Shown here in pieces: positions 50,274-57,151 of a stretch of DNA of 64,000 nt. The notes beneath the pieces are model-generated. The model did not search any database and had not been told where the DNA came from. It saw only the letters and a program-made list of their open reading frames with translations. This DNA is from Candidatus Bathyarchaeota archaeon (GTDB lineage: Archaea > Thermoproteota > Bathyarchaeia > 40CM-2-53-6 > RBG-13-38-9). Location: assembly GCA_963807605.1 (NCBI GenBank), contig CAWECG010000001.1, positions 96,001-160,000 on the forward strand. Direction: 5' to 3'. The position numbers and the translations under genes are program-made. The number at the start of each line of letters is the position of its first letter. Position 1 is the first letter of the stretch.

Positions 50274-52089
50274 TCACATGCCCCAGAGCGGGTTCCCCTT
50301 TCTCATTATCTCTTTGAGTTCATCCAGAAGAGCCAGCTCTTCGGAGTTTAGGTAATCTCTAAGTCTTGTGGAGAGCTCCTTTGCTGATGGTTCGGGAACG
50401 ACCACATAGAGAACATCGCCTTCGAAGACATTTCTATTCATGACCGCTTTGTCTACTGAGACTGCAACTTGCATGCCTGCTTTTGCTTCGTCAACGTCTT
50501 TTCCTTTGTCTTGAAGTCTCAAGACTGTTCCAATCCTTTTGCCGTCCTTGTTTATCAGTGGGGCTTTCTGTCTGACCGTTCCTGCTAGGATCTCTACTCC
50601 GAATATTGCTGGTTTACTGTGTCTGAATACGTATCCTTGGAGAACGTGTATCTTCCCAGGCTTGATGTGGCGGGCTAGCTCCGCTTTCACATTTTCGGCT
50701 TTTTCAGCTTCCATCCACCTCGAGTAGCTGTCAAGCAAGTCATAGATCACGTCTGCCTGAATTACGGGGATGCCTCTTCTTCCTGCTTCTACCTCAGCAT
50801 CAGGGAGTAGTCTGACATTGAATCCCAAGACTACACCGAGCAGACGATCCTCCTCTCTCACTATGCCTGCCTCAACGACCTCTCGTTTGGAAATATCGCC
50901 TACATCGGCTAATCTTATCGGTGTGTTTGACTCTCTCAGTGACGCGATTATCGCCTCAAGAGCCCCCAGCGTGTCAGTCTTGAGGACGATTCCGTTTCGG
51001 TCGGTCTGGATCCTCAGACTCTCAAATTCTTCTTTAACCATCTTTGAGAAGGTTGCAGTAGATTCGCCTTCTGGACCAGCATATAGAGAGGAGCCTGCGA
51101 GGGCTTTCTCCAAGTTGGGGGCTACAATCTTGATGCCAGCAGCGGCCTTGACGCCGCGCACATTTGAGAACTTCTCTCGTGGATCTCTGATCTCATCGAG
51201 AGGTTTAGGAACAAGAATTGCCCGAACATTAGTAACTATGGGGCCTTCTTTGCCTCCCAGGACTATCTGGTCGCCGACATTCAATACACCATCATAGATG
51301 ATTGCGTTAACAGTTGTACCTAAGCCGGTTTCTTCTTTGACTTCTAGAACCGTTCCCTTAGCTGGTCCAGTAGTTGTCAATAGTTCTTCTTTCATGAATG
51401 ATTGGGTCAGTCCAACCAACATCGCAAGCAGTTCCCGGATTCCTTCCCCCGTCTTTGCGCTTGTCGGAATAATGGCGACCGTCTTGGTGAAGTCCTTGAT
51501 CCTATCGAATCTGTCCGCCTGTAAGCCAAATTTGGACAGTTCTCCCATGATGGTGTATACCCGGTTATCTATGTCTCTCTGGACTTCTGGAGGTTGTTGC
51601 GCGATCTCGGAACTGATCGATTTGGTATCGATTCTCCTCCATCCGGGTACCATGTCTATCTTATTTGCTGCGACCAAGAAGGGCGTTTTTCTAGTCTTCA
51701 GTATCTCTATGGATTCCTCTGTCTGAGGTTCAACGCCTTTCGTTATGTCGATAACGAGTATCGCGATGTCAGCAGCCGAACCTCCTCGACGTCGCAAGTT
51801 TGAGAAGCTCTCGTGGCCTGGGGTATCGATGAAGAGCAATCCCGGTATACCAATTTGGAATTTGAATTGTTCAAGGGTCTCCCCGTATACCTCCTTGATT
51901 GTTTCTGTCGGTAGGAGACTCGCGCCGATCCATTGTGTTATCAGTCCCGGCTCCCTCTTTGCGACAGAAGTGCCTCTGATCTGATCGAGAAGCGTTGTCT
52001 TGCCGTGATCTACATAGCCCGTCGCCGTGCGGTCAGTGAGTTTGCAACGTATGGCCTAGAACCACGACAATTGGCTGACGAATTGACAA
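50274..52089 (-). CDS. infB: Translation initiation factor aIF5B (IF-2); two exons 52089-52051 and 52013-50274, 592 aa if spliced
   Basis: Exon 1 MSIRQPIVVVLGH joins exon 2 VDHGKTTLLD...DTPGHE...NKID...; the ORF track captures only 50274-51839. Confidence 0.95.
52014..52050 (-). other. 37-nt bulge-helix-bulge (BHB) intron in infB pre-mRNA
   Basis: Exon stem GUCGUGGUUCUA/UAGAUCACGGC, 4-bp helix GGCC/GGCU, 3-nt bulges AUA and AUG, intron stem CGUUGC/GCGACG; cutting after bulge nt 2 restores GGC CAU GUA GAU CAC. Confidence 0.88.
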
Positions 52090-52187: not shown

Positions 52188-52656
52188 TTACTCTTTGGGT
52201 TTGAGGCCAAGGAGGAATGCCGTCTCGGTAGGCTTGCTATAAGTTACGATTTCATTTTGCTCAAAGAATATCTTGATCTCGCGAGTCGCGTTCTCCATGC
52301 TGTCGGCAGCATGCGCTATATTCTGAGTTGTGTTCAAGGCAAAGTCGGCTCTAATGCTTCCCACATCGGCCTCTTGAGGATTTGTCACTCCAACAATTCT
52401 TCTGATCGCAATGACAGCATTCGGTCCCTCAACTACCATCGCGATTATGGGGCCGGATGTAATATGGTCAAGAAGCCTGAGATAGAAGTCCTTTGTTCTA
52501 TGCATCGAATAGAGAGTCTCAGCCTGAATCCTTCGACATTCTCAGGAGCTTTATTGCAGTTACGTTCAGGCCCTTTCTCTCAATTCTTGAGATTACTTGC
52601 CCGATGAGTCCCCTCATCACGCCCTCGGGTTTGATGAGAACTAATGTTCTCTCCAT
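52188..52656 (-). CDS. ndk: Nucleoside diphosphate kinase with a +1 frameshift near 52527
   Basis: [12 protein letters not shown]...RMSKD[extra T]QAETLYSMH...GSIRADF...NIAHAADS. Confidence 0.88.
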
Positions 52657-56072: not shown

Positions 56073-57151
56073 TGCTGTGTTGCGCGACTAGGTTTCAGTG
56101 ATGTTTTTCGCTTTTGTTGGCTGTCTTCAGGTTTCGTCTAGCCGTGTGTTGCTGTGGTTGTTTCTATCAGCATGTTGTATAGTGAGGCTTTGATCATCAT
56201 CTCCTGTGCCATGTTTTGCATCGTTTTGGCTGAGACGTATTCTCCGAAGGTTCGCTTCAGCGATGAGAAGGCTGATTCAGCCATCCATCTATACCCGTAG
56301 CCATGATTGTGTTTCCAGGCTTCAGGGTCTTTGAGGTATTCTTGGGCTACGAGCTTTCTGGGCATGCATCCTCCGGCCCTGCTGGATGTGTTCTTGCGCA
56401 CCTTGATGGCTGGCTCAATCCCTTTTGCGTTGAGATAGCGGAAGTTGCTTTTCATATCGTATGCTCCGTCGCCAATTGCCTTGGCGACCTTACCTTTCTT
56501 GGAGGCTTCATCAACAAGCGGCTGGAGCATCCCTCCGTCACCTGTCTTCTCATCCGTCACCTTCAAGGCGAGTATCTTCTTCCGCTTTACATCAACGGCG
56601 ATATGGATCTTGAGGTATCCGCGTCTCACCTTCCATTTATGGCGTATCCATTCGCCGCGGTTAGCCACCTTGATGCCTGATGCGTCCACCGCCAGGACTA
56701 TGTCGTCGCCATAATCTTTCTCATCCAGCTTCACATCTAACCTGTTCACGCGTCTATCTATGGTTGAATAGTCAGGCACATGGATCCTTGAGTCGAATCT
56801 TCTCAGGGCTTTGAGGAATCCTTCTGTCTGCCTGTAGGGTAGGTGGAATAGCAGGTGCATGTAGCCTAGAAGCCTGATGAAGATCTCAGGGTAGACGTAT
56901 TGTCCACCTTCCTTCCCAGTATTCATCTTTTCAAGCTCAATGTTCCACCTGTCAAGGATGCGTGGGTCAAGCAGGATCTCCCCACGCTTCACGAGACCCT
57001 CATTGATGCGTCTCCAATCTCTAGCAGCCAATCACAATCGTGGAATAGTTCTCTCACAGGCAATATAGATCATCCAACCACTTCCACGTCAATAAACCGA
57101 AAACTCAAACCTACATCCATAAACAAAAATGTCTAGTCATGCAACACAGCA
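56073..57151 (-). mobile_element. IS5-family insertion sequence
   Basis: Terminal IRs TGCTGTGTTGC(GC/AT)GACTAG; 8-bp TSD TTTTGCGT at 56065-56072 and 57152-57159. Confidence 0.92.
56138..57031 (-). CDS. IS5-family DDE transposase
   Basis: LVKRGEI, LPYRQTEG, PDYSTI, AVDASG, KIHIAVD, GDGAYD and RWMAESAFS motifs. Confidence 0.93.
   Translation of the reverse strand: MAARDWRRINEGLVKRGEILLDPRILDRWNIELEKMNTGKEGGQYVYPEIFIRLLGYMHLLFHLPYRQTEGFLKALRRFDSRIHVPDYSTIDRRVNRLDVKLDEKDYGDDIVLAVDASGIKVANRGEWIRHKWKVRRGYLKIHIAVDVKRKKILALKVTDEKTGDGGMLQPLVDEASKKGKVAKAIGDGAYDMKSNFRYLNAKGIEPAIKVRKNTSSRAGGCMPRKLVAQEYLKDPEAWKHNHGYGYRWMAESAFSSLKRTFGEYVSAKTMQNMAQEMMIKASLYNMLIETTTATHG

Follow-up and report, generated by a model that had tools for sequence, protein, structure and literature searches.

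Within the searchable literature, introns of the bulge-helix-bulge (BHB) type have been described in coding sequence only for the crenarchaeal gene cbf5 (Yokobori 2009, PMC2738675), which was stated to be the only earlier such case besides the HVO_1309 mRNA (Schwarz 2020, PMC7714728). A first-pass annotation of the DNA studied here had named the crenarchaeal cbf5 introns as the well-documented archaeal mRNA introns. No report was found in the literature searched of an intron in the gene for aIF5B, nor of a BHB motif in Bathyarchaeia, Nitrososphaeria or Thaumarchaeota. The present analysis concerns a stretch of 64,000 nucleotides (nt) from Candidatus Bathyarchaeota archaeon (GenBank assembly GCA_963807605.1, contig CAWECG010000001.1, positions 96,001 to 160,000 of the forward strand), referred to as the window, in which infB, the gene for the translation initiation factor aIF5B, is interrupted within its P-loop by 37 nt. 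With high probability, this insert is a BHB (tRNA-type) intron in the infB pre-mRNA that would be removed by the tRNA-splicing enzymes.

The cbf5 intron of Desulfurococcales and Sulfolobales (Watanabe 2002; PMC2738675) resembles the insert in infB in being a BHB element within protein-coding sequence. Both introns are phylogenetically patchy (gain and loss), and both occur in Thermoproteota with a heteromeric EndA. Removal of the cbf5 intron by the tRNA-splicing endonuclease was shown experimentally, whereas removal of the infB intron is predicted. The host genes also differ, cbf5 encoding a pseudouridine synthase and infB a translation GTPase. Unlike that of cbf5, the infB intron lies 39 nt into the open reading frame (ORF) and splits the P-loop, and infB can be interrupted at two separate places, the P-loop and switch I, both of which are occupied in some lineages. 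The HVO_1309 mRNA of Haloferax volcanii (PMC7714728) is, as proposed for infB, an mRNA on which the archaeal splicing endonuclease acts, but its intron lies in the 5′ untranslated region, leaves the reading frame uninterrupted and belongs to a euryarchaeon with a homodimeric enzyme. Archaeal tRNA introns share with infB the identical motif (a 3-nt bulge, a helix of 4 base pairs (bp), a second 3-nt bulge and flanking helices) and the same presumed enzymes. In infB, however, the substrate would be an mRNA and the outer helix would consist of two coding segments, so that synonymous codon choice is constrained.

In eukaryotes, splicing of XBP1 and HAC1 mRNA by IRE1 depends on a recognition motif of twin stem-loops and is regulated by endoplasmic reticulum (ER) stress. 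Like the splicing proposed for infB, it is a non-spliceosomal, protein-catalysed loss of a short, frame-changing mRNA intron, with RtcB-type ligation in animals; it differs in its endonuclease (IRE1), its recognition motif and its regulation by ER stress. The role of RtcB in IRE1-type mRNA splicing is mentioned in PMC8718801. Gene 60 of phage T4 likewise has a short non-coding gap with a hairpin inside an ORF, but neither the matched take-off and landing codons nor the adjacent stop that define it occur in infB. The infB insert is genuine and conserved; as a BHB intron it would work like that of cbf5 and would belong to a known but very rare kind.

Structure of the infB locus

The infB gene lies on the minus strand of the window and consists of exon 1 (52089-52051), the insert (52050-52014) and exon 2 (52013-50274), with the break at the same coordinates at which the first-pass annotation had placed 37 nt containing an in-frame UGA and a frameshift. 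All coordinates below are those of the window unless a contig is named.

52051..52089, minus strand: infB/aIF5B exon 1, a TTG start (52089-52087) followed by 12 codons, MSIRQPIVVVLGH; 13 codons in all
52014..52050, minus strand: predicted BHB intron, 37 nt (minus-strand sequence, fold, homologous inserts and covariation)
50274..52013, minus strand: infB/aIF5B exon 2, 579 codons from VDHGKTT and a stop (50276-50274); NCBIfam NF003078

Read in the frame of exon 1, the insert reaches TGA after five codons and shifts the frame as well. Exon 1 codes for the beta-1 strand and, with GH, for the first two residues of the P-loop. The product of exon 2 matched the archaeal IF-2/aIF5B equivalog models with 789 bits (NF003078, positions 20-598 of a 598-position profile) and 745 bits (from position 13 of a 591-position profile), indicating that exon 2 is without just the stretch encoded by exon 1. 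Joining 52051 to 52013 produced ...VVVLGH/VDHGKTT... in frame (here and below a slash marks the junction) and a protein of 592 amino acids (aa) with the junction peptide QPIVVVLGHVDHGK. This is the full-length aIF5B, reading GHVDHGK at the junction, that had been expected from canonical cuts. One infB was found in the 2.65-Mb genome (five contigs, 94% complete), EF-2 being the next-best match; an intact infB elsewhere did not appear in this search. The aIF5B gene is essential and single-copy.

Predicted fold of the splice motif

In canonical BHB motifs, both bulges are cleaved by EndA between their second and third bases. The structure of minimum free energy predicted for 52075-52000 was a strict hBHBh′ form (helix-bulge-helix-bulge-helix) and was the same as that drawn in the first-pass annotation, with an exon-exon stem, a 4-bp helix, 3-nt bulges on opposite strands and a 6-bp stem. 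The two bulges, AUA and AUG, were set on opposite strands with the central 4-bp helix between them. The elements of the fold were as follows.

52057..52070, minus strand: exon-exon (outer) helix, 5′ strand, 10 + 3 bp with U52060 bulged (minimum-free-energy fold)
52000..52012, minus strand: exon-exon (outer) helix, 3′ strand, in exon 2 (fold and covariation)
52053..52056, minus strand: central 4-bp helix, 5′ strand GGCC, in the Gly-His codons (fold and covariation)
52016..52019, minus strand: central 4-bp helix, 3′ strand GGCU, within the intron (fold and covariation)
52050..52052, minus strand: 5′ bulge AUA, predicted cut between 52051 and 52050 (fold)
52013..52015, minus strand: 3′ bulge AUG, predicted cut between 52014 and 52013 (fold)
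52044..52049, minus strand: intron (inner) helix of 6 bp, 5′ strand (fold and covariation)
52020..52025, minus strand: intron (inner) helix, 3′ strand (fold and covariation)
52026-52043, minus strand: intron loop of 18 nt, sequence not conserved (fold)

The predicted cut positions follow from the canonical rule together with restoration of the reading frame. Every feature of an EndA substrate that can be examined in sequence was found in the insert. A strict scan of the whole genome for BHB motifs gave 3,932 matches among about 5.8e8 position-length combinations (about 7e-6 each), and the sole frame-restoring combination of infB was among them. The scan recovered infB, but it was noisy, does not amount to a census, and missed the interrupted EF-2 and argF genes described below, whose motifs are relaxed.

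Two rival explanations bear on the insert itself. Translational bypass of the phage T4 gene 60 type, with take-off at the His codon and landing 37 nt downstream, would account for a short gap with a hairpin inside and a frame restored across it. Programmed bypass needs matching take-off and landing codons and a stop right after take-off. In infB, however, the take-off codon CAU would be matched against UAU before the landing site (UAG, UAA, CAA, AAA, CAC or CAU in relatives), and the codon after take-off is ACG rather than a stop. Since bypass also leaves unexplained both the conserved 4-bp helix with its two flanking 3-nt bulges and the base pairing between the exons, it is regarded as extremely improbable. 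Nothing beyond the fact that the 37 nt are an insertion speaks for a self-splicing intron of group I or II or for another mobile element. In group I and II introns the catalytic RNA core runs to hundreds of nucleotides, far more than the insert; no Rfam match was found anywhere in the window, and no ORF or repeats flank the insert. The probability of such an element is considered vanishingly small.

Covariation of the motif and selection on the exons

The first-pass annotation had proposed to look for the intron and for stem covariation in infB genes from related genomes; their alignment revealed a site occupied in many relatives and stems that covary, and also an exon 1 under purifying selection. 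Folds of 18 homologues also gave two 3-nt bulges around a 4-bp helix. In an 18-sequence alignment made with MAFFT, 94.9% of the cells of the BHB structure were paired, compared with 29-51% when the 3′ partners were slid by 1-3 columns; the central helix alone had 97% of its cells paired. Double compensatory changes were seen in four of the six inner-helix pairs, and the observed covariation score was reached by none of 500 shuffles. RNAalifold, run with no structure supplied, returned the same central and inner helices together with the 5′ bulge. In a larger set of 29 sequences from seven families (f1, f3, f29, f49, f56, f60 and that of L162, whose family was not placed), double changes were seen in all six inner pairs and in one central pair (C-G to U-A), and 98% of central-helix cells were paired.

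Exon 1 kept PIVVVLGH in all intron-bearing relatives, and its nucleotide changes were synonymous only, falling at the third positions of the Pro, Ile, Val, Gly and His codons and at the first position of Leu. This pattern of variation is the signature expected of a segment that is translated. In the exon-exon helix, 12-13 of 13 positions were paired in genes of f1, the family of the genome studied, and of its sister family f3, whereas the same positions in 36 intronless genes, which encode the same or nearly the same residues there, had a mean of 9.25 and a maximum of 11 paired. The higher pairing in intron-bearing genes implies a restricted set of synonymous codons, Leu for example always being YUA, and this restriction fits selection for the splice motif.

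These results also bear on the possibility that translation starts inside or after the insert and yields an aIF5B that lacks exon 1. GTG-ACG-GGC-CAC, which mimics the GH of the P-loop, stands in frame at the 3′ end of the intron in some relatives, and MTGH/VDHGK starts are predicted by some gene callers. The in-frame Gly codon at the intron 3′ end arises incidentally from the near-palindromic nature of the central helix, and it is because of this codon that some gene callers produce MTGH/VDHGK proteins. In the genome studied, by contrast, the exon 2 frame contains no ATG, GTG or TTG from the upstream stop as far as VDHGK, such a codon first appearing 58 codons downstream, which excludes an internal start before VDHGK in this genome, and in three relatives (G002, G006 and G007) a stop codon stands directly before VDHGK. 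An internal start would leave the conservation of exon 1 and its pairing with exon 2 unexplained, and is judged very improbable.

Public gene calls for intron-bearing infB genes were found to start inside the intron (MTGH, VTGH or MAGQ followed by VDHGK) or to be without 25-45 N-terminal residues, with loss of the P-loop. The mis-called proteins (P0002-P0010, P0037 and P0122-P0124) are still named translation initiation factor 5B or IF-2. These database gene calls from relatives bear out the suggestion, made from the window alone, that annotation pipelines miss such introns.

Distribution among relatives and a second intron site

Occupancy of the site was followed in an order-level sample of 105 genomes and a phylum-level sample of 151 genomes. 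An insert of 17-45 nt at the same P-loop codon boundary was found in f1, f3 and at least eight further families of the phylum. It was present in all 16 genomes of f1, the genome studied included, and in both genomes of f3; the other eight families of the order with a match (f2, f5-f10) had an uninterrupted LGHVDHGK. Inserts within the order were 35, 36, 37, 38, 40 or 45 nt long with a loop of varying sequence, and every insert with a length that is a multiple of three had in-frame stops. Elsewhere within the class, the same site (within 1 nt) was occupied in f24, f36 and f37, by 31 nt with the central helix GGCA/UGCC, and in f29. Outside the class it was occupied in f49 (5/5), f56 (2/3), f60 (2/2) and f63. 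In a single-gene tree the intron-bearing groups of the class fell in at least four separate clades, which implies an old intron that was lost many times or one that was gained repeatedly. A degenerate DNA pattern run over the genome contigs was swamped by bacterial GTPase genes because the VDHGKT codons are universal.

This distribution addresses the possibility that infB is a pseudogene or that the insert is an artefact of assembly or sequencing. That errors or recent mutations do occur is indicated by a 1-nt frameshift in the ndk gene of the same assembly, which has no counterpart in relatives. The infB insert, however, recurred at this site in dozens of genomes that were assembled independently, a recurrence that bears out the earlier view of an assembly error as very unlikely. 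Moreover, infB is single-copy and essential, its exon 2 runs through 579 codons without interruption and reaches 789 bits against the aIF5B model, and exon 1 varies at synonymous sites while its protein sequence is kept. On the strength of the independent assemblies, the purifying selection and the single copy, an artefact or pseudogene was excluded; there is next to no chance of either.

A second intron site was found in infB within switch I, between codons 25 and 26 of exon 2 (GGI/TQHIGA, between the Ile/Met and Thr codons), with inserts of 18-32 nt. The switch-I site was occupied alone in f9 (19 nt) and f11 (21 nt), together with the P-loop site in f29, and also in most f49, f56 and f60 genomes examined. 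In 16 of 16 switch-I sequences examined (L036-L041, L045, L048, L049, L082-L084, L086 and L088-L090), the frame-restoring cut pair was that of the BHB arrangement, and the 4-bp helix covaried (GGGA/UCCY, GAAA/UUUC and GAGA/UCUC). In infB of the genome studied the switch-I site was unoccupied, the P-loop site being the only one with an insert. P-loop and switch-I introns were seen in 12 or more families belonging to several classes of Thermoproteota.

Splicing enzymes and other interrupted genes of the genome

The genome encodes an EndA alpha subunit of 188 aa with the catalytic Tyr/His/Lys triad (C4:303338-303904, minus strand). Over its full length it aligned with catalytic EndA subunits from Sulfolobus tokodaii, Aeropyrum pernix and Pyrobaculum aerophilum (E 1e-38 to 1e-34), its best PDB matches were 2CV8 and 3P1Z_B, and it was closest to crenarchaeal alpha subunits. 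A 175-aa EndA paralogue without the His (C3:661461-661988) matched structural repeat and beta-subunit models and is beta-like. One RtcB is encoded (575 bits). Judged from sequence, the alpha and beta-like pair points to the heterotetrameric, broad-specificity type of enzyme. This type accompanies non-canonical introns (review PMC6379350).

Two further genes were interrupted. The gene for EF-2 is broken 21 codons in by a relaxed BHB intron of 31 nt (C1:210688-210718), with the central helix UCCG/CGGA, and removal of the insert restores DQIRNIGIIAHVDHGK (short form IRNIGIIAHVDHGK). The argF gene has a 31-nt BHB-like insert inside its STRTR motif (C1:88030-88060, minus strand), with the central helix CCGA/UCGG; central and inner helices are present without a contiguous outer helix, and removal of the insert restores KPSTRTR.SFEVA. 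Both aIF2-gamma and EF-1-alpha of the same genome were checked and were uninterrupted. For infB (both sites) and EF-2 alike, the introns fall inside the first 120 nt of the ORF.

Other features of the window

Directly upstream of infB, the ndk gene (52188-52656, minus strand) is split by a 1-nt frameshift at about 52523-52524. The break is an extra G in ...GAT TCA G/GCT GAG..., and the upstream frame stops at TGA 52521-52519. Among ten f1 relatives searched, ndk formed a single, stop-free reading frame (154-199 aa) in seven (G001, G002, G003, G005, G006, G008 and G009); the ndk match in G004 and G010 contained stop codons. The break is a recent mutation or an assembly error and, being a frameshift of 1 nt, not an intron.

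An ORF for a 297-aa DDE-type insertion sequence (IS) transposase lies at 56138-57031 on the minus strand. A match of the BHB scan at 56278-56327 (plus strand, 50 nt) was rejected as a false positive, being the antisense of this transposase. The same 50-nt antisense match with an identical junction peptide was found at eight places in the genome, from which the IS element is apparently present in about eight copies.

Proposed mechanism of infB splicing

The infB mRNA must, very probably, be cut and rejoined by the tRNA-splicing enzymes. In the proposed mechanism, the last 20 nt of exon 1 would form base pairs with both the intron's 3′ end and the first 13 nt of exon 2, and this pairing would present two 3-nt bulges set apart by a 4-bp helix. 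A heteromeric (alpha-beta) EndA is predicted to cleave both bulges behind their second base. The exons would be joined by an RNA ligase, most likely RtcB, and the intron would probably be circularised. Only the spliced mRNA would encode the beta-1 strand and an intact P-loop, giving the 592-aa aIF5B. Counted from the first base of the start codon, the motif's 5′ strand sets in after 20 nt; formation of the motif and the loading of ribosomes should therefore compete, in which case splicing would have to be fast or to take place before translation.

Several points weigh against a spliced intron. The fold energy of 52075-52000 was ordinary (z = -1.45), with 19 of 200 shuffles folding as well; the energy is unremarkable but the geometry is rare, because strict BHB combinations occur at about 7e-6 each genome-wide. 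The placing of the cuts relies on the canonical rule, which was not found explicitly stated in the literature searched. The alignment of 29 sequences from seven families was built by a covariance model and leans towards the structure of that model. Related genomes are moreover not independent samples, and the covariation and pairing counts share their kinship. Finally, the protein collection held no spliced-form protein near-identical to those of the intron-bearing genomes: the closest proteins to the f1 lineage (76-84% identity) were gene calls starting inside the intron, and those closest to the f49 lineage (90-100%) were N-truncated calls.

Implications

BHB introns in coding sequence have so far been treated as an oddity of a single gene, cbf5. 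In the lineage studied here, an essential and universal translation factor would not be made without mRNA splicing. That the intron couples the supply of aIF5B to tRNA-splicing capacity is speculation. It is also possible, although rather doubtful, that the P-loop and switch-I introns of infB are ancient, recurrent features of translational GTPases, retained as an EndA/RtcB checkpoint that ties the supply of aIF5B and EF-2 to tRNA maturation, or, alternatively, that the GTPase codons form a preferred 'proto-splice' landing site for mobile BHB introns.

The systematic mis-annotation of such genes by standard gene callers, as truncated or with wrong starts, distorts marker-gene sets and estimates of genome completeness. 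The synonymous codons of the exons would be under selection for RNA structure, and the infB intron may offer a tractable system in which to study splicing in relation to coupled transcription and translation. Conservation of the intron in many lineages, the second site in infB and the cases of EF-2 and argF suggest that mRNA splicing in archaea is broader than thought.
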